Part shown: in pieces, positions 14,239 through 59,805 of the stretch
Numbering within the stretch: the first letter of the stretch is position 1
Layout: each line of letters begins with the position of its first letter
Virus record (IMG/VR): IMGVR_UViG_3300006151_000005
Coordinates: 41,516 to 105,515 of that record
DNA from: a virus
Taxonomy: Duplodnaviria; Caudoviricetes
Strand: one strand, 5' to 3'
Length of the DNA stretch: 64,000 nucleotides
Notes under the pieces: generated by a model
Told to the model about the DNA's origin: nothing
Database searches by the model: none
The model's input: the letters and a program-made list of their open reading frames with translations, nothing else
Position numbers and translations under genes: made by a program

Positions 14239-17200
14239 TTAGATATTTTTCGTGTTCTTTTTGATTTCCGCTATATCAGCCTGCATGGTCTGTATCGGCT
14301 TCACAATCGCGCCAGTATTCTCGCTGATGGTTTGCAATTCGATGTAAATCTTTGCAAGCTGACGCTCGATGTTGTCCTGATGAACATTGAAGCGGCTATA
14401 TTCCATCGCTATCTGGAGCAATTCGTCAGTCATGTCGGCAAGCGATAATGTGTGCTGATTCTCGTTTGCACGGATAGATTCAACGGCTATCTGCAACGCC
14501 GTAAGTCTGCCCTCAATCGCATTGCCGGTGTCCTGTGACATTCCTTCAAGTGTTCGGCTTGATGACTGCTGCTCGGATGAGCCATCCCAGCCCATAGCCT
14601 TTTTAAGATTGTTGCGGTCATTGACGGCATCGCCTACAATGTTATCCCAGTCGCGCTTCAAGCGTTCCTGCTCTGCGGCGGTAAGACCATCTTGGTCATC
14701 CATAGCGGCGACAAAGTCTTCATACCACTGCTTGAGCTTTTCGTTGTACTTGGAGTTCATTAGGCTGTTAATAACGGCCTGTTGCATCATCTTTTCAAAG
14801 TTGTTGGCGAAGTCCTCGCTATCGGATTCCATGTCAAGAAGCATCGACTTAAACTCGTCCTTGACGCTATCAAACGACACGTCAGTCAGCGACTCACGGA
14901 ATGCGTTCTCAAGCTCTTCAAGTTCTTTGTAGTATTCGATGTATTCATCCATGAACTGCGCGGCATCCTTGTGGCCGTCATCGGCAAGACCTTTAATTTT
15001 GGCGTAAAGGTCAGGTGCGCTCTGTGCAACCTTTGCCATCTGCTCGGAAGTAAGATTCCAAAAGTCACCGGCACTGCGCACCGACTTGCCTACGATAGCA
15101 GAAATACGCGACCAATCATCGCCGCTCATGCCCTTATTTATCTTATGGTTTGAAGACTTGTATCCTCCAACACCCAAGAAGCCATTAGAATACGCCGCGC
15201 CGGAACGTGACATCATTTCCTGAGTATTCTTCATCGCCTTTTCTATATCGCCTTTCTGCTGCTGATATAGTGCGCCCATATCGGCAGTGGCGGCATCCCG
15301 CATTTCATCGGCAAGATTATACACGGCCTTGCGAAGTGCCTCGTTAGTAGCGGTCAAACGTTCAATGTCTTCCTCAAGATGCTTGTCGCTTTCGCCGTTA
15401 CCCCACCAATCAAACCAACCGCCAAGTGTGAAGATTGATTTGAAGATGCCGAGGATGCCTTTGTAAAGGCTTTCGCCAATCTGACGGAAAAGACCCTCCT
15501 TGAAGTTGAGTATGTTGCCGATAATGCCTGAAATAGCATTAAGGATTGAATCAAGAATCGCTGTAATAAGTGGCCCTAATCCATCTTTAAGAATATCAAG
15601 TATTTTAAGAATAGAAGCTATAAGTCCAGCTATAAGTCCAGCCTTTCCAAGACCTTTAGCCATGCTACCAACTGCTTGCGAGGCTTCGCCCACTGCATCC
15701 CCTGCTTCACTAACTACACCTGTGATTTCACTTGATAATTTATCGGCAGCGCCGGATGCCGAATCGCTAAAATCTTCAAAGGAAAGTTCAAGTTTTGTCA
15801 TTGCATCCTTAATTAACTGCGGTGAGTCTTCAAGTGCGGATGCAAATGCTTCTGCGCCCTCTGCTGCGGCATCTTTAAGGTCGGTAATCGCTTTGGATGC
15901 TTCCTCAAAAGCCGATAAACCTTTCAGACCATCGATAGCACCCTTTAAGGAGTCAAATGCGTCCCAAAGGTCTGCCAACTGCGAAAAGCCGGAATTGCTC
16001 AAGAATGTATAAATTTTGCTGACCGGCTTGATGACGTTCTTTGCAGTTTGCGACAACATCATGCCGGAGCTTTTTACTGTATTCTGCGCCTGCTGTAATG
16101 CGAGGTTGGAATTTGCCACGGTTGCACCATAGTTGTTGACCGCGATAGTCGCATTTTCATAAGCCTCTTGCGCAACCCTCAACTGTTCCGGTGATGTTTC
16201 TGGATTATTGCGCACTCTTTCAAGATTCCTCTGGGCTTCCGATTGGACTTGTGTAAGGCGACTTAATTCGGCAGTAACTCGTGTATCGTTTTCGGTAGCG
16301 ATGCGTAATTCATCAAGGGCTTTCTGATAAGCCATCAATGATGAAGACAAATCTTGCCACGATTGATTAGAGCCAAGCTGCTGACGCATACTTTCCATGG
16401 CCTCTATAACGGTTTGCTGATTCTCTGCACCGGATTGACGGAACGACTCGGTTTTTACATATTTCTGCAACTGCTCATAAAGCGGTTCAAGCTGACCGCG
16501 CATAATAACGCCAACGTTATCAAAGACAGTGTACCAGTCAATCTGATTCATTACCGCATTTGATTCAAACTGCTCTTCCTCGGCACGTTGCTGCCGTTGC
16601 AAGGCAAGACGCTCGCCCTCGCTTTGGGCGTTTCTTATTTTTTCTGCATATTCTTCTGCGATAGCAAGTTTTTTCTGCTGAAAAGACCCAAATTCTTTCA
16701 GATAGTCACGCATAGCAGCAAAGTCTTCCTTAAACCTTGCTTCAAGGTCAGTTGATCCATTGACATCAATCAACTGGCTCTGTGTGTCAAAGCCTATGTT
16801 GTCTTTAGCCTGTGTAAGCCAATCCTCGCGCATCTTCTTCAACTGTTCGTCGGAGAATTGTGCATAATACTGATATTCCTTGCGACCTTTGCCACCCTTG
16901 AGCCATTCCTGCAAGGCGTTCTTTTCAAGTGTCTGCGCCTCCCTTTCGGCTTCTTTCAAAAGAGCCTGACGCTTCTTTTCGGCAGTAAATTTGATAGTGG
17001 CTATTTCCTTTTCGGAATTATCCTCCAACTGTGCGATTTCAAGCTCACGCTGATTGTTTCTTTCTTCCTGTAAAAGTTCAGCGGTTCGACGCTCCTCTTC
17101 CAACTGCATCTTACGAAGCTCGTATGCCCTTTGCTTAGGGTCATCCTTACTGCCGCCTTTCTTATTTCCTTTCTTGGATTTATCGCGCTTATCAAGTGCT

Positions 17201-20200
17201 TTAAGCTGCTGCTCGTAGTATTTATACAATGCGCTTGACTGGTCAACCTTTTGCATCTGCGAGTTGATAGACTTGCGGATTTCAGAAAATTCCTCGGTTG
17301 TTTTGGCGTTCTGAATCTGGCTTTCAAGGGCGGTCTTGATAGACTGCATAGCCTGACTCTGATTGCCTTTATTTCGGTTGTATTCGCCCACCATTAAGTC
17401 GTTTTTTAACTGACGATACAATCGCTTATCAACATCAGACATTGCACCCTCGCCCAACTGCGTACCATAACGGTCAATAAACTGCTGCAATAGTGCCGAC
17501 TGCTCGGAATTAAGATGGTAGTTCTTGCCGCCCATCTTGAAATTGCTTCGTAGACGGGCGTTCCGTACAATCGCGTTATAGGCATCCAAATCGGCTTTTG
17601 CCATCTTTGTGCCGGGAGTGATTTTGCCGTTCTTTCCATACTTGGCAAGAAGATTCTGCAAGGTCTGACGTTCTGCGCCGGTCGTATTCAAGACCTGACC
17701 GCCCACATCACGGAGCGTAATCTTGATTTTGTCAAGTGTATTTAGTGCAATATCAAGATATTTGGTGTCAATGTAAGGCGTGGCTACGGCGTTGTCAACG
17801 TCTTTCATCTTGTCTTCCGCTTGCGCTGCCTTAACCGACGTTTCATCCAGCGCAGTGTTGTCGGTTGTCGGCGTAGCTGACGATTCATCGACATCGCCAA
17901 TCTTGCCTTCCGTTTGTTCGGCGGCTTCAAAAAGTTCATGTATGTTGATAGGGTCTGCCAAAGGTTTGACCGGTTTTGCATTGATTTCATCAACCTCTTT
18001 CGATACCTTTGTCAGCTCCTCGGTCAATTTCTTGGAATCAAAGGTGGAATAATCAATTTCCGGCTGTGCCGCAGCCGCACGTTCAGCGGCATCCGCAGCG
18101 GCATTTGCTTGGGCTTGCGTCTTCTCGGTCAGTTTATCAAGCGTATTGGTTTTGTTAATAAGCTCGGAAACAAGTTTGGATGTATCCTTGATGTCAAGAA
18201 CATACTGCTCGGCAAATCCCATCTGTTTCGCCAGTGCCTTTGCATCCATGTTTGCGGTTTGGGCAATTTCCGTCTGCAAGCGGGCAATTTCTTGACGTGC
18301 CTTTACAGCGGCTGCGTTTTCAATCTTTTGACCATTCTCGGTATAGGTTACATTAGCGGCATATTCCTTTTCAGCATCCTCAAGGAGTTTGACCATTTCA
18401 GTAAGTTCAGCCTTTTTGTTTTCCACCGTACTTGCTATGGTGTCGGCCATAATCTTGGATACTTCGGCAGCTTCCCCGGATGAATCGTTTTCAATGATTT
18501 CTTTCATTTCATCCTTGAAAGATGTAGTGGCGGCATCCTTTTCTTCCTGAATAGTTGCAAGACGATTGGCGGTCTGTCGTGCTTCGCCCTCTGCCAGAAT
18601 CAGTTGGTTAAGCTGCGCACGGGCTTCATTTAACTGCTCAATCTTATCCTTTTCCTTGTCGATGTGGATACCGTATTCTTCCGCCATCTTGATAAGCTCC
18701 TCTACGGCATCCTTGTGTACCCGGCTATCCTTGTTCACGGAGTTCATTACGGCGTATAGCGTATCGATGTTGTTTTTCAGCTTCAACGTGGATTCGCCAA
18801 ATCTTTCAGACATAGCGGATGATTCCTCAGCTTCGTCCTTAAACGACATAAATAGACCGATGACGGTTGTCAGGGCGGTAATTATCATGCCGAAGGGATT
18901 GGTCATAAAAGCGACCTTGAGGCTATTCCATGCGTTCTTGCAGGCGTTGGTGGCCGCAGTCAGCGCATACTTTCCGATGGTCAATGCTTTATCCTTTGCC
19001 GTGGCAAGTGCGGTCACGATTGTGCCGCGACTGGTTGCGGCGGTATTTACGTTTGTGGCCGCAGTATTGGCGGTGGTTGCGGTTGTTTCTCCAATGACGG
19101 CGGCTGTGGCGGTCTGTTTCTGCACGGCTTGCTGTGCGGTAATCGCGCCATTCAGTTCCTTTTCTGCTGTGTTTATACCCTCGGCTGCTGACTGCTGGGC
19201 GGTTATAGCGGAAGCCTGCTCCTCTACTGCCGCCATGTATTCTTCGGCGGCGGCTTTCTTATCGTCGGCATCGCCGGCGGCTTCTGCCATCTCCATCAGT
19301 TCTTTTGCAGACTCAACGCGCCTTTCCGCAGCTTCTACAAGTTGGTCGCTTGCGGCTTTCTGCATGTTCGCGCTTTCAAGTGCCGCCTGCTTTGTATCAA
19401 CGAGTGCCTGTGCATAGTCGCGCTCATTCTGCAAGCGTTCAGCGGTATCATTCGTGATTATTCCGTTGGCATTGGAGTCGTTGATGTCGGCATCAAGGCC
19501 ACGCCCGGCTTCTTCGCGCTGGGTCTGCATGTCCTTGAGGTGCGTTTCATAGGTCTTCTGCGCCTCTTCTGCGATACGGCGTTCATTCTCGGCGATGCGC
19601 TGCTGTTCCTGCTGCCATAAACGCCCCTGCTGGATTGAGTCGGCATACGTCTGGTCGATAGACCCTTCCTCAAGAGCCTTGCGTATGTCATCGTCGTAAC
19701 CCTCCATCATCTTGGCGTTCTGCATTTCCTGTATCTTGGCAAGTTCGGCATTGAAGCCATCCACGATGCCCTTTGAAGCGTCGATAACGGATTGCTTGGC
19801 TGCGAAATTGGAAAGCATCACGGAGGTCTTGTAAACACCGAAAGCCGCCGCAGCGGTGGCGAGTACCGGAATGATTCTGCCGATATTGTCAACAATAGTG
19901 GAAGCCGCGTCAATAACGCCCACAAGCGCACCCTCCATATTCTGACCCATGTCATTAAACATCAAGTCCATCGAGTCATTCAGCTTGGCGATTGCACCCG
20001 GTATGGTCTTCGATGCCGTTTCCGACATCTTGTAGTATTTGCCTCCCTCGCTTGTTGCGTCAAGAAAAGCCTGCTGAACCATCTCGGCTGAAATCTTGCC
20101 CTGCGACATTTCTCCCTTGAGCGCACCGATAGATTTGCCGGTCTTTTCGGATATGACCTGCAATGGCTGGAAGCCTGCGTTTACCATCTGCATCAAGTCC

Positions 20201-20835
20201 TGACCCATCAGCTTGCCCGCTGCCGACATCTGCGAAAACGCAAGCGAAAGCGACTGAAAGCGGCGGGTATCGCCCATAGCAATATCGCCGATAGCCTGCA
20301 AGTATCGCGGAACTTTGTCAGCGTCGATGCCGAAGCCGAGCATCATCTGTGCAGTGGAAACAGTAGGTGCAAATTCAAGCGGCGATATTTTGGCAAACTC
20401 CTGTAATTCGGCGTTCAGCTTCTCGCCCTTACGCTTGCCAATCATCGTTTCGATAGATGCGTTCATCTGCTGGAACTGACCGCGTATGCTTGTGATTTTG
20501 GTAAGGAACTCACCCAGACCATACACGCCGGCAAGACCGCCCACGGCCATCATCGGTCGCGTCAGTAAGTCCTGTATGCGGTTGACCTCGGTAAATATTC
20601 CACTGAGGTTTTTCTTGATGCCAAATTCCATTTCCGCACCACTGCGCATTGCGGCCTGTGCAAGCTGACGATAACGCGCCGTGCTTTCGGCGAGTTTCTT
20701 GTTCAGTGCATCAATCGACGCGCCGGCCTGCCCCGGCCTAAAATTCTGAATTTGGGTCTTGGTCTTTGCGATTTCCTGTTGTAAACGTATCAGTTCGGAG
20801 TAATCCGCATCTACGTCAAATGCTAAATATGGCAT
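14239..20835 (-). CDS. tail tape measure protein (~2198 aa)
   Basis: Tape-measure core (SAAGKLMGQDLMQMVNAGFQPL), long Ala-rich helical regions, hydrophobic stretches. Start moved to the ATG of MPYLAF, downstream of the predicted promoter. Confidence 0.9.
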   Translation of the reverse strand: MPYLAFDVDADYSELIRLQQEIAKTKTQIQNFRPGQAGASIDALNKKLAESTARYRQLAQAAMRSGAEMEFGIKKNLSGIFTEVNRIQDLLTRPMMAVGGLAGVYGLGEFLTKITSIRGQFQQMNASIETMIGKRKGEKLNAELQEFAKISPLEFAPTVSTAQMMLGFGIDADKVPRYLQAIGDIAMGDTRRFQSLSLAFSQMSAAGKLMGQDLMQMVNAGFQPLQVISEKTGKSIGALKGEMSQGKISAEMVQQAFLDATSEGGKYYKMSETASKTIPGAIAKLNDSMDLMFNDMGQNMEGALVGVIDAASTIVDNIGRIIPVLATAAAAFGVYKTSVMLSNFAAKQSVIDASKGIVDGFNAELAKIQEMQNAKMMEGYDDDIRKALEEGSIDQTYADSIQQGRLWQQEQQRIAENERRIAEEAQKTYETHLKDMQTQREEAGRGLDADINDSNANGIITNDTAERLQNERDYAQALVDTKQAALESANMQKAASDQLVEAAERRVESAKELMEMAEAAGDADDKKAAAEEYMAAVEEQASAITAQQSAAEGINTAEKELNGAITAQQAVQKQTATAAVIGETTATTANTAATNVNTAATSRGTIVTALATAKDKALTIGKYALTAATNACKNAWNSLKVAFMTNPFGMIITALTTVIGLFMSFKDEAEESSAMSERFGESTLKLKNNIDTLYAVMNSVNKDSRVHKDAVEELIKMAEEYGIHIDKEKDKIEQLNEARAQLNQLILAEGEARQTANRLATIQEEKDAATTSFKDEMKEIIENDSSGEAAEVSKIMADTIASTVENKKAELTEMVKLLEDAEKEYAANVTYTENGQKIENAAAVKARQEIARLQTEIAQTANMDAKALAKQMGFAEQYVLDIKDTSKLVSELINKTNTLDKLTEKTQAQANAAADAAERAAAAQPEIDYSTFDSKKLTEELTKVSKEVDEINAKPVKPLADPINIHELFEAAEQTEGKIGDVDESSATPTTDNTALDETSVKAAQAEDKMKDVDNAVATPYIDTKYLDIALNTLDKIKITLRDVGGQVLNTTGAERQTLQNLLAKYGKNGKITPGTKMAKADLDAYNAIVRNARLRSNFKMGGKNYHLNSEQSALLQQFIDRYGTQLGEGAMSDVDKRLYRQLKNDLMVGEYNRNKGNQSQAMQSIKTALESQIQNAKTTEEFSEIRKSINSQMQKVDQSSALYKYYEQQLKALDKRDKSKKGNKKGGSKDDPKQRAYELRKMQLEEERRTAELLQEERNNQRELEIAQLEDNSEKEIATIKFTAEKKRQALLKEAEREAQTLEKNALQEWLKGGKGRKEYQYYAQFSDEQLKKMREDWLTQAKDNIGFDTQSQLIDVNGSTDLEARFKEDFAAMRDYLKEFGSFQQKKLAIAEEYAEKIRNAQSEGERLALQRQQRAEEEQFESNAVMNQIDWYTVFDNVGVIMRGQLEPLYEQLQKYVKTESFRQSGAENQQTVIEAMESMRQQLGSNQSWQDLSSSLMAYQKALDELRIATENDTRVTAELSRLTQVQSEAQRNLERVRNNPETSPEQLRVAQEAYENATIAVNNYGATVANSNLALQQAQNTVKSSGMMLSQTAKNVIKPVSKIYTFLSNSGFSQLADLWDAFDSLKGAIDGLKGLSAFEEASKAITDLKDAAAEGAEAFASALEDSPQLIKDAMTKLELSFEDFSDSASGAADKLSSEITGVVSEAGDAVGEASQAVGSMAKGLGKAGLIAGLIASILKILDILKDGLGPLITAILDSILNAISGIIGNILNFKEGLFRQIGESLYKGILGIFKSIFTLGGWFDWWGNGESDKHLEEDIERLTATNEALRKAVYNLADEMRDAATADMGALYQQQKGDIEKAMKNTQEMMSRSGAAYSNGFLGVGGYKSSNHKINKGMSGDDWSRISAIVGKSVRSAGDFWNLTSEQMAKVAQSAPDLYAKIKGLADDGHKDAAQFMDEYIEYYKELEELENAFRESLTDVSFDSVKDEFKSMLLDMESDSEDFANNFEKMMQQAVINSLMNSKYNEKLKQWYEDFVAAMDDQDGLTAAEQERLKRDWDNIVGDAVNDRNNLKKAMGWDGSSEQQSSSRTLEGMSQDTGNAIEGRLTALQIAVESIRANENQHTLSLADMTDELLQIAMEYSRFNVHQDNIERQLAKIYIELQTISENTGAIVKPIQTMQADIAEIKKNTKNI

Positions 20836-20862
20836 GGCTGTTGAGTTGTTATTTTCAATCAG

Positions 20863-20938
20863 CCAATTTACCATGAAAGAGGGTGTTACACATTATTTTC
20901 CGCGCACGTATAACGTACTATCAGAAAAAAGTCGTAAC
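20863..20938 (-). promoter_or_regulatory. putative late promoter with TTACGAC box (tail operon)
   Basis: GTTACGAC-N33-AATAATGTG, same spacing as at 55109. Confidence 0.55.
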
Positions 20939-23295: not shown

Positions 23296-23368
23296 CGCGG
23301 GTTGGAGCAGTTGGAAGCTCGCCAGTTTAACTTGCTGGAGGTCGTCGGTTCGAGTCCGACACCCGCTA
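23296..23368 (+). tRNA. initiator-type tRNA with anticodon AAC (reads GTT)
   Basis: Cloverleaf: CGCGGGT/ACCCGCT acceptor with C1xU72, GAGC/GCTC D stem, CCAGT-TTAACTT-GCTGG anticodon arm, GTCGG-TTCGAGT-CCGAC T arm, A73. CCA not encoded. Confidence 0.9.
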
Positions 23369-23396
23369 CAAATAAAATCACTTACAAACAAAATCA

Positions 23397-23768: not shown

Positions 23769-23795
23769 TCATTAACCCTTTAACACTATAAGTGA

Positions 23796-23996
23796 GTTAG
23801 ACGTAGAATTGATAACAACTATGGCCCCCGTCGGAACATGAACGGTGCCGGTGCCGGTGGCCGACTCGTAGCCCGTCGCACCCCTGCGGGCGTAGTTGCT
23901 GGTCGTAGCCAGCTCGGAAATCGTGAACAGCGTCGCGCTGACCTCCGCGCAGCCTTTGCTGACCAAATCCGCGCCGCTGGTGGAACAACCGGCTAA
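23796..23996 (+). CDS. 66-aa Arg/Gly-rich protein, probable GTT start (not in ORF track)
   Basis: TGA-GTT-AGA-CGT-AGA...TAA after an A/C-rich leader; internal ATG at 23838. Confidence 0.65.
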   Translation, partial: VRRRIDNNYGPRRNMNGAGAGGRLVARRTPAGVVAGRSQLGNREQRRADLRAAFADQIRAAGGTTG

Positions 23997-26228: not shown

Positions 26229-26915
26229 GTTAAAAAGCCACGTAAGACAGATTATAACGCGAGAGTCACAAAGGCACTCAAGGGAAAGGGCGTACCTCAC
26301 CTTGAAGAGCCGATGTACCGCGTATCCGCGTCGGCTTTTATAAAGGCTATAAGACGCGGCAAGGCATCGCAAGGCAGGAACGGCTGGATGGTTGACCTGC
26401 ATAGCAAAAGCGAATACAAGCGGATGCGATGCTTTCTTACTCCGGACGGAAAGACAGGTGTAGCGATAAAACGCGATGGGGATGTAGTGTCTGTATTCTC
26501 CACCAGCGGAAAACGAGGCGCAATGGCAAAAATCATACCGTTTGCGGTCGCTAATGGTGGTCGCAAACTGGATTGTTATGCTTTCTCGGATGGCCGCAGT
26601 TCACTTCACAACATGTACGGAAGATTCGGCGCAAAGGCTCACGGCAAAATGACCTTTGACCCGCAATATAATCCTGTTTTCCAACGCACGGCGCAGGCCA
26701 ATCCCGGTATGCGCAGACCCTCTCATGTCGTGGCGATGACGCTGCCGGGCAGTCTTGCCGGTGTCATGCGGGCTTACAACGCTGACAGGAAGATTGACCT
26801 TGGGCGCGTGAGGTCGTATAATGATTACGACAAGATGATGGATGACCGAAACGCGCATCTTGCACTACGCGGAAAGTCAAGCGGTGTCAGAGGCGCACTT
26901 GGCGGCGGTAAATAA
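26229..26915 (+). CDS. basic protein with possible GNAT-like domain, probable GTT start
   Basis: TAG-CGA-GTT-AAA, in frame with ATG 26313; DGKTGVAIK.DGDVVSVFS, GGRKLDCY, LHNMYGRFG. Confidence 0.6.
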   Translation, partial: VKKPRKTDYNARVTKALKGKGVPHLEEPMYRVSASAFIKAIRRGKASQGRNGWMVDLHSKSEYKRMRCFLTPDGKTGVAIKRDGDVVSVFSTSGKRGAMAKIIPFAVANGGRKLDCYAFSDGRSSLHNMYGRFGAKAHGKMTFDPQYNPVFQRTAQANPGMRRPSHVVAMTLPGSLAGVMRAYNADRKIDLGRVRSYNDYDKMMDDRNAHLALRGKSSGVRGALGGGK

Positions 26916-27690: not shown

Positions 27691-27978
27691 GTTAGACGCA
27701 GACGTACACCATCAACAAGAACTATGGCATACTACACCGGTAGCTATGCAGACCAGAACATGATGTCACCATACGGAATGGGATATTCTCAGTCACAGGT
27801 GGCAATCAACAATCGCGCACAGGCTCTCCGTCGTCGTGTTGGCGATATGAACGTTTCATCATCCCAACGGCAAAGGTATTACGATATAATAGGCCGAGCC
27901 AATGGCAATATGTTTCAGGCAATAAGAACTGCAACGGGGGGGCAAATGACCACTTCCCAATTAGGTTATGCGTGTTAG
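27691..27978 (+). CDS. small basic protein, probable GTT start (VRRRR...)
   Basis: ATA-GTT-AGA-CGC-AGA, in frame with ATG 27724; N-terminus parallels the 23796 ORF. Confidence 0.55.
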   Translation, partial: VRRRRTPSTRTMAYYTGSYADQNMMSPYGMGYSQSQVAINNRAQALRRRVGDMNVSSSQRQRYYDIIGRANGNMFQAIRTATGGQMTTSQLGYAC

Positions 27979-28038
27979 AGAACCGGTCATCTCGCCGTCA
28001 CATGACGGAAATAGCAAGTTCGACTCTTGCACACGCAG
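27969..28038 (+). ncRNA. tRNA-like element with 4-nt anticodon loop (ACAT)
   Basis: TGCGTGT/ACACGCA, GAGA/TCTC, CCGTC-ACAT-GACGG, GCAAG-TTCGACT-CTTGC. Confidence 0.7.
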
Positions 28039-28069
28039 CATAGAAGATTAAAATTTCATTATCACGACG

Positions 28070-38049: not shown

Positions 38050-38670
38050 TTACGGCTTTCGTTTCCCAAGGATAAACGAATGGTAGTCACCGAACTTCCG
38101 GCGCACGATATACGCTCCTTTTTCAAGTCGTTCCCATCCAGCTTTCACATCTTTGATGTCGATTCCGAGCGCCTTTGATACCATGATGTCAGTTACACAG
38201 AAAGGCGCGTCACCGGCTGATTTTATTCCATTCCGAAGATAGGCGTATATCGCTACATCGTAGGCGGTTAACGAGATATTCGGAATGGGTAACACCTTGC
38301 CATCGGCAAGCTCTTGGCGCATCTGGTCGGCCAGTCGTTTTGACTCCGCGAATACGGATTCAAGGCTTTCAACCGGTCGATGCGCCTGCTGACGTTCAAG
38401 TTCCATCCAGCGCAACACAAGTCGCGCACGAGATTCATCGTTGAACTTGGTGGCGATGTAGAGGCACTCTTCTTTCGTTAGATTGTAGCAAGGGAGGACG
38501 CGCCCGGTTGGGTCGGTGTATTCACTAAGCGTAAAATTGCGCCCAGTAACCTTATACCACGCTTCTTCCATTTTGCGGATTGAACGCATCAGGTCTTTAT
38601 GACGTTTCTCCGCTACTTCTGCAATTAAGAGCGATGTCATTGTGGGTTGTTGAATTGGTAATGTTTCCAT
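38050..38670 (-). CDS. Rha family regulatory protein with C-terminal wHTH-like region
   Basis: MTSLLIAEV.EKRHKDLMRSIR, YNLTKEECLYIATKFNDE.RARLV.RW.ELE. Confidence 0.85.
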   Translation of the reverse strand: METLPIQQPTMTSLLIAEVAEKRHKDLMRSIRKMEEAWYKVTGRNFTLSEYTDPTGRVLPCYNLTKEECLYIATKFNDESRARLVLRWMELERQQAHRPVESLESVFAESKRLADQMRQELADGKVLPIPNISLTAYDVAIYAYLRNGIKSAGDAPFCVTDIMVSKALGIDIKDVKAGWERLEKGAYIVRRKFGDYHSFILGKRKP

Positions 38671-40660: not shown

Positions 40661-41941
40661 TCATTGTTGTTTGATTTCAGCAGTCACGCCGTCAGTGCCG
40701 GTCACGTCTGCCGGATTAATCGCTTTCGCGGAATCGGGATTTTCAACAGCCATCGACAATTCTAAATCGCAGAAGCCTTTGCAAGCTCCGCGATAGCCGT
40801 TGAAAAATTCAATGGCGGTCATGCGTCGCTTGTTCGGCATCTGCAATTCAAGCACGGAAATAAGCTCGTCGCCACAGGCGATGTATAACTTGCGGTCTTG
40901 CCAGAACAACTCGCCGGGTGCATGATAGCCACGCGGTATGCCGGTCTTTTCCGTCTTGAATATCTTGACGCTTATTGCCTGCTTTCCAAGCATTGCCAGC
41001 GAAGTCCATGCCGATGGGATGGGCGTAAGTGCGCGTATGAAGTCATAGACGTAATTGGCAGGCTTGAGCCACGGAATGATGCAGTCCTTTCGGTGTAGCT
41101 TCGGCGCGTAGCAGGGCTGGATGAAGTCGCAGATAAGCTCCGATTGTGGGATGGGTCTGCAAGAATGGGCTATGCGCTGAATTGCATCGTCCATCATTTC
41201 CGCACCGGCTATGCGCAATTTGATGTGAACGTCTTCCGCGTTGTCATCCTCATCGATGCCGATGGCGAGATTGTTGATGATGCCGCCAGTATCGATTTTG
41301 TCTTCAAGCATGAACGTAGTCACGCCGGTCATGCTGTTACCGTCCTTGATAGCGGATGCGATGGTGGAAGCACCGCGATACATGGGCAGCATGGACGAAT
41401 GGAGATTGATTGTTCCCCACTTCGGAATGGTGTATAGCGCACGTGGCAGTATTCTGAACTCCACCACTACGCCAAGCGTAGCATGAAGATTGTGGATGTG
41501 CCGCAGAAACCTGTTGGAGTCGAGCTTCCGTGGCTGAAAAACAAGGATACCCATAGACTCTGCATAGACCTTGACCGCAGACTTGCGCACGACCTTTCCG
41601 CGACCGAAGGGCTTATCCTCCATCGTTACCACGGCGGCGACATCATAGCCGCGCTCTACAAGTATCTTGAGGGTTGGTAGGGCGAACTGTCCGTTTCCGA
41701 AAAACACGATGCGGATGCCCTTCCGTTCTACCGGCTTGGACGAGTCGTATTCCGGATAGGCTACGATTTCCGTTTCATCAGCAGCCGTGTAACCGCCATT
41801 ACGCAGACGCACCAAGTATGAGCCATCTTCTACCGGGTATAGAATCTGACCCTGACTTAGTATTCCTTTGTCTTCATTCGCGCATAACAGGCTTGATGGA
41901 ACTTGTACCGATTGCCCTACGCGATAGATGGGCGTTTTCAT
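40661..41941 (-). CDS. fmt: methionyl-tRNA formyltransferase-like protein with extra ~75-aa N-terminal domain
   Basis: RIVFFGNGQFA, DKPFGRG, INLHSSMLPMYRGA, IDTG, YAPKL, IRALTP.PSAW, ELQMPNKRRM..IEFFNG. Confidence 0.9.
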   Translation of the reverse strand: MKTPIYRVGQSVQVPSSLLCANEDKGILSQGQILYPVEDGSYLVRLRNGGYTAADETEIVAYPEYDSSKPVERKGIRIVFFGNGQFALPTLKILVERGYDVAAVVTMEDKPFGRGKVVRKSAVKVYAESMGILVFQPRKLDSNRFLRHIHNLHATLGVVVEFRILPRALYTIPKWGTINLHSSMLPMYRGASTIASAIKDGNSMTGVTTFMLEDKIDTGGIINNLAIGIDEDDNAEDVHIKLRIAGAEMMDDAIQRIAHSCRPIPQSELICDFIQPCYAPKLHRKDCIIPWLKPANYVYDFIRALTPIPSAWTSLAMLGKQAISVKIFKTEKTGIPRGYHAPGELFWQDRKLYIACGDELISVLELQMPNKRRMTAIEFFNGYRGACKGFCDLELSMAVENPDSAKAINPADVTGTDGVTAEIKQQ

Positions 41942-56445: not shown

Positions 56446-57534
56446 GTTAAACAGTCATTCTATTTCGATTACGCGCAGAAATACTTCCCCGGCCTCGTTC
56501 TGGCCGTGGTTGAACGTCTGAACGAAAAGCGCAACAACTCCGCGCAGACGTATCTCTACAAAGAGAAACTTCGCCCCCAGTTCTCGCTTGATGGTCGCTG
56601 GGCTTCCATTCTTGCCGAATACACCCGTGTAGCCGCCGACGTTGTGGCACTTGACTCCGAGCTTCCGCTCAAGAGCCGTGACACGCTGGAGGTTGCTTCC
56701 GGCACTATCCCCAAGATAGGTATGAAGCTCTACCTGACCGAAAAGCAGATGAAGGACGTTGATTCGATGATTGCACAGGGTCTTCCCCTTGAAACCATCA
56801 TCAACAACATATTCGCCGACACCCCCCGTTGCATCGAGGGCATCTGGGAGCGCATCGAAGACATCTTCCTTTCCGAGCTTTCGTCCGGCGTGGGCATTTC
56901 CGAACGTAACAACGGCACCGGCGTGCGCATCAACATGAACTTCTATGAGGCCAATCAGTTCCTCGTATCGGCTCTGTGGAGCGCAACTACCGCCACACCG
57001 CTTGACGACATTCAGAAAGTCGTTGACAAGTCCATCGAAGACTCCAACACCATCATCGACGCATACGCCGACGATACCGCCCTCCAGCTTCTTTACAAGA
57101 ACGGTCAGGTGCGTGCGCAGTTTGCCTTTGACCAAGGCATCGCCATGACTGCATCAACAGCCATCCCCGTGCTTGACCTTTCCAAGCTCCAGCAGCTTTT
57201 CCTCACCAAGTGGAACATCCGTCTGCACCGCGTTTCGCGCCGTGTGAAGACCGAGCTTAACGGAGTTAAGCAGAACCACAACCCGTGGAAGAAAGGCACT
57301 ATTACCTTTGTCTGCGATGAAGAGCTTGGCTCGCTTGTATGGACTAACGTCGCCGAAGTCAACCGCCGTGTTGATGGTGTAGTCTATCAGGTAGCCGACG
57401 AATACATCCTTGCAAAGAAGTATTCCAAGACAGACCCCCTCCGCGAGTTCACCGCTTCCGAGGCTATGGTTGTCCCCGTGTTGAACAACGTTGACCGTAT
57501 CTATACGCTCGACTCTCAGACCGTTCAGGAATGA
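56446..57534 (+). CDS. major capsid protein, probable GTT start (VKQSFYFDY...)
   Basis: Position and size (362 aa); AADVVALDSELPLKSR, GTIPKIG. In-frame TGA directly precedes GTT; first GTG is 20 codons in. Confidence 0.85.
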   Translation, partial: VKQSFYFDYAQKYFPGLVLAVVERLNEKRNNSAQTYLYKEKLRPQFSLDGRWASILAEYTRVAADVVALDSELPLKSRDTLEVASGTIPKIGMKLYLTEKQMKDVDSMIAQGLPLETIINNIFADTPRCIEGIWERIEDIFLSELSSGVGISERNNGTGVRINMNFYEANQFLVSALWSATTATPLDDIQKVVDKSIEDSNTIIDAYADDTALQLLYKNGQVRAQFAFDQGIAMTASTAIPVLDLSKLQQLFLTKWNIRLHRVSRRVKTELNGVKQNHNPWKKGTITFVCDEELGSLVWTNVAEVNRRVDGVVYQVADEYILAKKYSKTDPLREFTASEAMVVPVLNNVDRIYTLDSQTVQE

Positions 57535-59234
57535 AAGCAACCATCCTCGTACCTTTCCGCGACAAATACGACCATGCAGTCGTGTATGCGCCCGGAGATG
57601 TAAAGGAATTTGACAATGACCGCGCAGTGGCACTGGTCGCTCGCGGTCTTGTCGAACCCCTTGCAGAAGCTCCCAAAGAACCCGAAGAAAAGGCAGAAGC
57701 CGACGCGAAGCCCGCCAAGCCTAAAGGTAAGGGCAAAGGTAAATCCACCAAAAAGGAAAAGGAAGTCGCCGATGCAGCTCCCGAAGCCGATAAGGTAGAA
57801 GCCGATGCCGACACCGAAGCTGACGCGCCCGAAGAAGCAGAAGCCGAAGATTCCAACGATAACGAATAATACCGATGACAATACGCGCTTACATAACCGA
57901 TAAGTTGAAAGCCTACGGAATCACGGAGGCGCAGCTTGTCGATTTGTCTATTTCGTCCGGGTTGAAACTTGACTCCGATGTCATGGATAACGACCCCACC
58001 GCAGTAGGCATTGCACTGACGCAGACGCTTGAGGAGTGCATCCTTGCGCCGCGACTGTCAAGTGTAAGCGAAAGCGGGTTTTCGATGTCGTGGAACTACG
58101 ACTCCGTGGGCAAGTATTACCTTTGGCTTTGTCGTAAATGGGGCGTGACCCCTAACGATGATGTCTTGGGTATGCTTGGCATTTCCACTATTATAGACCG
58201 CACCGATAATTGGTAAAAGCATGTACTACGCACCCCACATATTGCAGAAGCGCATTATCGCCGAGGAGAAGTCGGATGAATTTGGAAGACCTATTCCAGA
58301 AGAAGCTGGCGACTCTTGGGTGGAAGTGTGCCGATGCAGATGTGACCACAATGGGGATAAAGAAGTCAAGATGCCCGATGGCACGGTCGTAACGCCGGAA
58401 TATCATGTTGTCCTTGAGGACAACGAACCGGATATTGAAGTCGGCGATTACGTGCGTTGTCTGAAAGCAGACGGAACTATCCGTGGCGAGGGTCGTGTCA
58501 TTAAGCCGAAAACATTAAACTATCTGCCTTATGCGGAGATCTATCTGTAAGTTTGACTTTAGCGACGTGCGCCCGGCTTTAGCTCGCTTTCATCGTGATA
58601 TGCGCAAACAAGTTGAGCGCGTAGGTCAGGAAGCCGTGGATTACGCAGTTGAGCATGGCGATTACCATGATGTCACCGGCGAAACACGCGCCAGCAATCG
58701 TTACAAGGTTGATGCCAACAACAATCTGACCATCTATAACGAGTGCGACCACGCCGCAGAACTTGAGGCAAACGGCAAAGATGTTATTGGAAACGCGGCT
58801 TTATTCGCAGAACAACGACTTAAAGAGATTTTTGAATGATTACCACCACTGACGCAGCAAACATCCTTTACACCGCCTGCAAAAATATCTTCGGGATGCC
58901 AGTTTATCAGGCCGGCAATATTCCCGCCGGTAAGGTAGGCAAGGATGGTCGCGTAGTTATCCACACCAAAGAGCATAGCCCCGGCTCCACATGGAAGAAA
59001 GGATTCATCGAAGTCAATTTATTTGTCGCTGACACACCACAGGGCAACGCCAATCTAACCCGGCTTAACGAGCTTGAACGTATGGCGACCAAATCCCTCA
59101 AGGATATGGGATGGCATGACGGAACGGCTTACCGCTTTGAAGTGGCTTCTACGATACCGATGGAAAATGTCAATCTGAAAGCCCACTACATTAACACCAA
59201 AGTGCTTTTCAAAGTGCTTAATACAATGGAATAA
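57531..59234 (+). other. head-tail connector and tail completion genes (57531-57869, 57875-58216, 58221-58550, 58531-58839, 58836-59234)
   Basis: Typical size and order between capsid and major tail; SVSESGFSMSW adaptor motif. Confidence 0.7.
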
Positions 59235-59259
59235 TTAACCCCTTAACACCCATACACGA

Positions 59260-59805
59260 GTTGAAAATTCACCTAAAGTTTGCGCAGTAGGCATCAAAAA
59301 ACTGTACTATGCTGACCCCAGCAAAGTGACCGCAGACCTTACCGGCGCACTCCTTGCCGCCCTGCTCAAAGACGCGGCCACAAAGGAGGTCAAAAACATC
59401 CATCAGGACACGTGGACTATCGAGGAAAGCGAGTCGTCGCAGGACGGCTATCGCAACCAGCTTACCGGCTCGATTTACCGCATGGGAACAAAGACAATGG
59501 GCGACGTAACGTTCAACTGGACTATCGGCCAGTACGACTACGCCACTAAAGCCGAGTTCCTTGGTGGTGTAGCTACCGCTAAGTCGTGGAAACGTCCTCG
59601 CGGCATCGTCGAAATCCACAAGACCCTCATCGCGCTGACCGAAGACAATCAGTATTGCGTACTTCCGTATGCCAATATCGCCGGTCGTGAGGCAAACACT
59701 GACGGCGCAGTCGGCATCGGCATCGTCGGCACAGCAATGGAGCCGGAAAACGATGCAGTATCGTCCGAATACTGGTTTGACTCCTCCGAGGTAGTATCCG
59801 CGTAA
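59260..59805 (+). CDS. major tail protein, probable GTT start (VENSPKVCAVGIKKLYYAD...)
   Basis: In-frame TAA at 59236; no in-frame ATG/GTG/TTG until 59326. NIHQDTW, FNWTIGQYD; hairpin terminator ~59842-59872. Confidence 0.75.
   Translation, partial: VENSPKVCAVGIKKLYYADPSKVTADLTGALLAALLKDAATKEVKNIHQDTWTIEESESSQDGYRNQLTGSIYRMGTKTMGDVTFNWTIGQYDYATKAEFLGGVATAKSWKRPRGIVEIHKTLIALTEDNQYCVLPYANIAGREANTDGAVGIGIVGTAMEPENDAVSSEYWFDSSEVVSA

Follow-up and report, generated by a model that had tools for sequence, protein, structure and literature searches.

Start codons in bacteria are treated as a fixed set, comprising ATG, GTG, TTG and a few rare near-cognates, with one initiator tRNA. The AUU of infC is a non-canonical start of this kind, read by the ordinary initiator. 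Phages, for their part, reportedly use suppressor tRNAs for the stop-codon recoding of late genes, as Borges and colleagues are said to have described in 2022. The closest described counterpart of the locus reported here is an artificial one: in E. coli, an engineered initiator tRNA carrying the anticodon AAC (i-tRNA(AAC)) raised initiation at GUU 8- to 10-fold, and at no other codon, yielding Val and fVal N-termini (Hutvagner et al., 10.1101/2021.05.25.445580; also 10.64898/2025.12.21.695813), with formylation and deformylation being the inefficient steps (10.1101/2021.05.25.445580). A search of the literature (open-access papers and preprints) returned only this engineered tRNA and non-canonical starts read by the normal initiator, and found no natural case of GUU initiation with an initiator tRNA(AAC). 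A private start codon has so far been known only as a laboratory design, and the phage described here, judging from its sequence, appears to use one.

The phage comes from the mouse gut (Muribaculaceae), and copies of it lie as prophages in Muribaculaceae genomes, in that of Isolate-036 (Harlan) at 98% identity (L082). Its virus record (IMG/VR IMGVR_UViG_3300006151_000005) comprises 105,515 bp, of which we analysed the stretch of 64,000 nucleotides from position 41,516 to 105,515, referred to below as the window; all coordinates are those of the window. The gene of interest, encoding the major tail (tube) protein, a member of phrog_14600, occupies positions 59260-59805 of the plus strand (181 codons and a TAA) when read from GTT 59260-59262, its proposed initiation codon. 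Upstream on the same strand is a separate gene of unassigned function (phrog_5597, 58836-59234) whose own TAA (59232-59234) is followed by a second stop, the TAA at 59236-59238 that closes the tail frame upstream, and then by an A/C-rich leader, CCCCTTAACACCCATACACGA (59239-59259), whose last three positions are conserved in the clade. From 59260 the sequence reads GTT GAA AAT TCA CCT AAA GTT TGC, and the first in-frame ATG, GTG or TTG is the GTG at 59326-59328; this is the codon picked by ORF callers, which miss the 22-codon N-terminal segment VENSPKVCAVGIKKLYYADPSK (59260-59325). The original prediction had described this layout, i.e. an in-frame TAA at 59236, an A/C-rich leader, GTT GAA AAT, 22 codons before the first in-frame GTG and a TTG at 59261 out of frame, and the letters agree with it throughout; the TTG belongs to a different frame that runs into a TAG at 59288. 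Since the chance of an open stretch as long as 29 codons is about 0.25, i.e. not improbable, the weight of the argument rests on comparison. A blastn search of the tail locus against a phage GenBank collection gave no match.

The comparison indicates that the 22 codons before the GTG code for protein, with purifying selection in the tail frame only. Positions 4-177 of the 178 in phrog_14600, a family without an assigned function, align to residues 14-187 of the stop-to-stop reading (E 3.8e-63), and full-length homologues, from a search run exhaustively over 1.8 billion representatives, match residues 4-10 of the query with their own residues 2-8. When 45 sequences are aligned, the GTT-encoded valine lies where the homologues have their initiator methionines. 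Distant homologues of about 181 aa (65-75% identity) start with MAxxKxISAVDIKRLWYA, and for the closest ones (76-88%) the gene calls begin at various codons further downstream (MYYAD, MAVGIK, MGIKR, MTADLTG, MLAALL, MKNIHQ, MHQDTW), the public calls for the tail protein showing at least eight different wrong start positions. This scatter is best read as the trace of an entire clade that has no canonical start. We collected DNA of 14 distinct clade members (68-100% protein identity) from IMG/VR, NCBI, ENA and Logan assemblies, which are kin and represent roughly nine lineages rather than 14 independent events. Across these (n=14), in the 17 codons free of gaps that precede the GTG column, the synonymous share of codon differences is 0.47 in frame versus 0.07 and 0.14 in the other frames; within the segment the tail frame has no stops and its indels are all multiples of three, while the other two frames contain stops. 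The remainder of the gene, downstream of the segment, has 4890 synonymous versus 2839 non-synonymous codon differences, pointing to purifying selection.

Structure prediction places the same segment within the fold. In an AlphaFold2 model (pLDDT 94.9) residues 14-18 (KLYYA), inside the segment, form a strand with a pLDDT of about 96, and Foldseek matches of the model in the PDB are the tube proteins of Bxb1, Douge, lambda gpV, HFTV1, YSD1 and T5 (E down to 1e-7). With 13.3 bits, the match to the Pfam family PF18906 (Phage_tube_2) stays below its cut-off of 27. Siphophage tail-tube proteins (lambda gpV 7t2e, Bxb1 9d93, Douge 8zdj) are alike in predicted fold (Foldseek E 1e-7 to 1e-3, probability 1.0), and their genes are likewise found downstream of head and connector genes, but their sequence identity to the phage protein is only 9-16%. 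If, instead, the annotated GTG 59326 were the true start, the product would be a protein of 159 aa lacking the N-terminal strand. This codon is indeed the first of the standard set in frame, and public calls for close relatives also begin downstream, yet those calls are scattered and show no conserved downstream start, the GTG column holds GTA, ATC, ATA or GTT in other lineages, and the protein sequence encoded by the 22 upstream codons is conserved and contributes to the predicted fold. We consider this reading highly improbable, with the GTG being an internal valine codon that is not conserved as a start.

The evidence for the GTT itself is of a different kind. It is the first codon in all 14 distinct sequences, always with an A at -1 (the G at -2 and the C at -3 are found in 13 and 12 of the 14, respectively), and the codons flanking it vary. 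Three internal columns that are valine throughout each use all four valine codons in these 14 sequences; since the start never does, the third base of GTT seems to be constrained as a nucleotide. In particular, it never becomes GTG, a one-base change to a canonical start, either in the 14 tail sequences or in five sequences of the capsid gene (see below). The GTT aligns with the ATG of L105, the closest ATG-type relative (75% identity), and with that of other relatives. An in-frame TAA directly precedes CGA GTT in L102/L103 and L140, so the start can lie at most that one codon further upstream, and the tail gene has none of ATG, GTG, TTG, CTG, ATT, ATC and ATA from its in-frame stop up to the conserved P-K-[VIL]-[CS]-A-V-G. 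To go by these alignments, GTT is conserved at the nucleotide level at the N-terminus of the family.

One may also consider a start inside the extension at a rare codon of translation table 11, ATC 59293 (Ile12) or CTG 59302 (Leu15), in which case the earlier codons would be untranslated leader. The Ile12 column is ATC or ATT in 14/14, as such a start would have it, but ATG-type homologues keep this isoleucine just as strictly, at an internal position, and Leu15 is CTT or TTG elsewhere. The codons before Ile12 (P5, K6, A9, V10, G11) show mostly third-position changes and in-frame indels of 3 nt, as coding sequence does, and the invariant A-GTT would be left unexplained, all of which renders an internal ATC or CTG start very unlikely. 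Recoding, in the form of either initiation at the out-of-frame TTG 59261 (MKIHLK...) with a -1 slip or read-through or bypass from the upstream gene, is scarcely credible: the TTG does overlap the GTT, and L009 and L011 have a slippery-type heptamer (C_CCA_AAG), but most lineages lack the TTG (GTTA instead) and the heptamer position reads CCTAAAG here and CCTAAGA in L004-L008. A slip at CTA_AAG was accordingly rejected, neither TTG nor slippery site being conserved. Fusion, read-through or bypass was rejected as well, because the upstream gene and the tail gene stand in no constant frame relation across relatives (L099 has them in the same frame, this phage at +1) and between one and three stops separate them, among these the TAA right before CGA GTT.

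A start at the GTT thus remains the preferred reading, and the original prediction, by which the major tail ORF opens at CGA-GTT, is upheld by the invariance of GTT (14/14), by the TAA one codon upstream in two relatives and by the ATG-type homologues, which align there and start within a few residues of GTT rather than at the equivalent of 59326. Its further proposals, that the segment before the GTG belongs to the protein and that it is beta-strand-like, are supported by homologues covering it across the family, by synonymous changes that dominate in frame only, and by the confident beta-strand of the tail-tube fold that the model places there.

GTT also appears to open other genes of this phage. 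The major capsid gene (56446-57534, plus strand) opens with TGA GTT AAA CAG, its next canonical start being 20 codons on and its next ATG 92 codons on; in relatives the corresponding sequence is AGA GTT or CGA GTT (also TAA CGA GTT), and both the GTT and the N-terminus VxQSFYFDY are conserved. On the same strand, an ORF for a basic protein of 66 aa (23796-23996) opens with TGA GTT AGA, a 228-codon ORF (26229-26915) with TAG CGA GTT AAA, its next ATG coming 28 codons later, and a 95-codon ORF for another basic protein (27691-27978) with ATA GTT AGA, where its counterpart in G013 has TGA GTT AGA. One more GTT-opening ORF is located outside the window. A count of codon enrichment over all 'orphan' ORF heads was too noisy to reveal GTT enrichment alone and was used for picking candidates. 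A GTT at 46917 (TGA GTT TCT) was rejected as an additional start, since an ATGA-coupled ATG at 46959 explains the gene.

The capsid gene also bears on the idea that the tail gene has lost its start and is decaying as a pseudogene in a defective prophage, or that the GTT is an assembly error. Beyond the absence of a canonical start nothing speaks for this, and against it stand the presence of the same codon in independent assemblies (IMG/VR, NCBI isolates and MAGs, ENA, Logan), the purifying selection on the entire gene and the same feature in the capsid gene, so that it is barely conceivable.

As for the sequences preceding the GTT starts, the leaders at 23772-23795 and 59235-59259 have TTAACCCYTT(T)AACAC in common, some 10 nt ahead of GA-GTT. 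This motif, partly retained in relatives (CCCTTTAAC), could be a translation enhancer, a late-promoter signal or a processing signal. A generic leader common to all GTT starts was considered and rejected, as only 23796 and 59260 have TTAACCCYTTAACAC.

The window further contains, 36 kb from the tail gene and just upstream of the ORF for the 66-aa protein, a tRNA gene with the anticodon AAC, which complements GUU (23296-23369, plus strand; found by both ARAGORN and Rfam). It has the loop UUAACUU, a C1xU72 mismatch, A11:U24, G30:C40 and A73. In the host genome it matches over its full length the initiator tRNA-Met(CAU) alone (L108 1501-1573, 73% identity), and no tRNA-Val in that genome matches it at E<=10; with 1x72 mismatched and a body that is not valine-like, it does not resemble an elongator tRNA-Val. 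We compared seven phage variants with two host initiators. Position 1:72 is unpaired in 9/9 (CxU, CxC or UxU in 7/7 phage variants, CxU or CxC in the host initiators), A11:U24, G30:C40 and G2:C71 are present in 9/9 and C3:G70 in 8/9 (one has U3.G70), and A73 is invariant. Across the nine tRNAs 95% of cells pair, and nine pairs show compensatory double changes. G2:C71 and C3:G70 are formylase determinants in E. coli. The host initiator tRNA-fMet (Muribaculaceae) shares with the phage tRNA the 1x72 mismatch, G2:C71, C3:G70, A11:U24, G30:C40, A73 and similar T and D arms, but has CAU and A37 where the phage tRNA has AAC and U37, and two of its three anticodon-stem G:C pairs are replaced in the phage tRNA. 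By all these features the phage tRNA is an initiator-type body with an anticodon matching GTT.

Two features of its anticodon arm deserve comment. The stem (A29:U41, G30:C40, U31.G39) retains one of the three initiator G:C pairs, the middle one, which is invariant. In E. coli, tRNAs with only one of the three pairs initiate less well. G30:C40 is the essential pair and suffices alone, and natural initiators with au/GC/gu stems exist (Shetty et al. 2016, PMC5389676). The loop has an unusual U37. In initiators the base at 37 pairs with the mRNA base at -1, and exchanging A37 for U creates a preference for A there (Höllerer and Jeschek, PMC10018350), which fits the invariant A before every GTT start. 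A matching initiator-type tRNA(AAC) in the same genome thus offers a mechanism for the GTT start, and we hold with good confidence that translation of the tail tube would begin at GTT 59260, not at GTG 59326, the GUU being read by this tRNA, and that the capsid gene and at least three other ORFs use the same device. The reduced anticodon stem, the odd U37 and the 36 kb between tRNA and tail gene weigh against this reading.

Several other features in the vicinity of the tRNA, or resembling it, were noted. A 2211-aa ORF (14239-20874, minus strand) lies upstream of tRNA(AAC). A tRNA-like gene at 27969-28039 (plus strand) overlaps the 3' end of the GTT-start ORF at 27691-27978; its acceptor, D and T arms are intact, its anticodon loop is shortened (CACAUG; identical in L124, CACAAG in L128), ARAGORN labels it 'tRNA-??? 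(ca)', and it cannot decode normally. Rfam tRNA matches of 100-125 nt with long inserts in the anticodon region were found in related phages, in L117 (G003:15028-15129), L120 (G005:3077-3200) and L153-L157, among them a tRNA-Gly(UCC)-like gene of the ATG-type relatives with an insert of roughly 40 nt.

The phage also encodes a homologue of methionyl-tRNA-formyltransferase (Fmt; 40661-41980, minus strand), which travels with the GTT clade. It contains the domains PF00551 (3.5e-28) and PF02911 (1.1e-17), and, at 202.8 bits, lies just above the TIGR00460 cut-off of 201.5. These domains are preceded by an N-terminal extension of about 90 residues that has no Pfam match; the gene overlaps an HTH gene (41938-42252), and its true start may be slightly downstream of 41980. 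No peptide deformylase was found in the phage genome.

Across phages, the tRNA and the GTT starts co-occur: among the records compared, tRNA(AAC) is present in every GTT-type record that is long enough (G000, G003, G005, G008, G013 and L136) and absent from four complete ATG-type relatives (G014, G015, G016 and G018). This pattern bears on the possibility that GTT 59260 is the start but is read weakly by the host tRNA-fMet, giving an N-terminal Met, with tRNA(AAC) serving some other purpose. Natural non-canonical starts via the normal initiator do exist, for example the GTC of Streptomyces sigR, with its control by IF3 (PMC5472188), and a GUU-start reporter tested in E. coli in the absence of i-tRNA(AAC) shows low expression, with Met only (10.1101/2021.05.25.445580). 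Some GUU initiation by the host initiator may take place. However, GUU mismatches CAU at two positions and is a very weak start in E. coli, whereas the genes in question encode the two most abundant virion proteins; the GTT is never swapped for the far better GTG in the 14 tail and five capsid sequences; and the matching initiator-type tRNA not only co-occurs but also co-varies with the GTT starts. Reading by the host initiator is therefore an improbable account of these starts, and reading by the phage tRNA the preferred one.

The covariation emerges from more distant phages. A second, diverged lineage of tRNA(AAC), with U1xU72, a compensated anticodon stem and the same loop, is found in unrelated phage contigs of 20-40 kb. 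One of these, G009, an independent lineage, has TGA GTT starts on genes other than virion genes, including one for a ParB-like protein whose residues 6-253 align to positions 3-245 of the 245 in phrog_9353. In L146/L147 (G009), TGA GTT AAx starts at 38403, 34723 and 33951 (minus strand) are on genes for amidoligase, ParB-like and LPD3-domain proteins. No Fmt homologue was seen in G009, the record of which is incomplete. A pattern search of viral contigs for initiator-type bodies with a UUNNNUU loop yielded many with the anticodon GAC (C1xA72) and a few with CCU. The GAC-type carriers (loop UUGACUU; L158, L161, L163, L165, L167, L169-L177 and L179-L181) have GTC or GTT starts on genes for small basic proteins. 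In L161 the orthologue of the 23796 protein (62% identity) has a TGA GTC start beside an initiator-type tRNA(GAC), and L171 has CGA GTC together with tRNA(GAC); other GAC phages use GTT, which G:U wobble permits. In AAC genomes, all candidate starts in a GA-GTN-A context are GTT, with isolated GTC matches lacking that context. Anticodon and start codon, as far as these genomes go, co-vary between phage groups, with AAC/GTT here, in G013 and in G009, and GAC/GTC in L161 and L171. Since the second AAC lineage (G009-G012) and GAC-type phages (G019, G020, G022) start their tail-tube gene at ATG, the set of genes with the private codon seems to differ between lineages. Initiator-type tRNAs with CCU (C1xU72) were seen in L162, L164 and L166, and in L164 and L166 a 67-codon ORF without any ATG, GTG or TTG opens with TGA AGG AAG about 110 nt downstream of tRNA(CCU).

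The following scheme can be proposed. If tRNA(AAC) behaves like the engineered i-tRNA(AAC) of E. coli, the host ValRS would load it with valine through A35/C36. A formyl group would next be added, probably by the phage's Fmt homologue, and the tRNA would be delivered for initiation, its mismatched 1x72 end presumably barring it from elongation. In the ribosomal P site it would read the GUU at 59260, and U37 could pair with the invariant A at -1, extending the contact to four bases (AGUU:AACU). Synthesis of the most abundant virion proteins would in this way depend on a tRNA supplied by the phage, possibly for regulatory purposes, and the need for formylation is perhaps the reason for the phage Fmt. 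More broadly, we regard it as reasonably likely that this is a natural, phage-private initiation code, in which an AAC-swapped copy of the host initiator and the phage Fmt would place formyl-valine, by initiation at GUU, at the head of the capsid, the tail tube and a few further proteins, gating virion synthesis, and that it belongs to a wider, hitherto undescribed family of initiator tRNAs in phages whose anticodons differ from CAU (GAC and CCU as well).

If true, this would be a new layer of gene control. A practical consequence is that every gene caller truncates or misses such genes, so that capsid and tail proteins of this phage group are mis-annotated in all databases. Among known systems, sigR (GTC) and infC (AUU) likewise have a conserved codon other than ATG, GTG or TTG at the start of a real gene, but these are weak starts, associated with down-regulation by IF3 and without a dedicated tRNA, whereas the phage starts belong to abundant virion proteins and have a matching tRNA. 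The suppressor tRNAs of phages also alter the meaning of a codon in structural genes and make translation phage-dependent; they reassign stop codons in elongation, whereas tRNA(AAC) would reassign a sense codon for initiation, as the initiation counterpart of stop-codon recoding. The engineered i-tRNA(AAC) of E. coli shares with the phage tRNA the initiator body, the anticodon changed to AAC and the cognate GUU start. In contrast to it, the phage tRNA is natural, phage-encoded and conserved in a clade, has the loop UUAACUU (U37, U38) and an altered anticodon stem, is accompanied by an Fmt homologue, and would serve capsid and tail genes in a Bacteroidales host that lacks Shine-Dalgarno pairing. 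If the proposed reading is correct, the phage may thus possess in natural form an orthogonal translation system of a kind that had to be built in synthetic biology, and its U37 and U38, its fewer anticodon-stem G:C pairs and its dedicated Fmt homologue are features that could improve the engineered ones.
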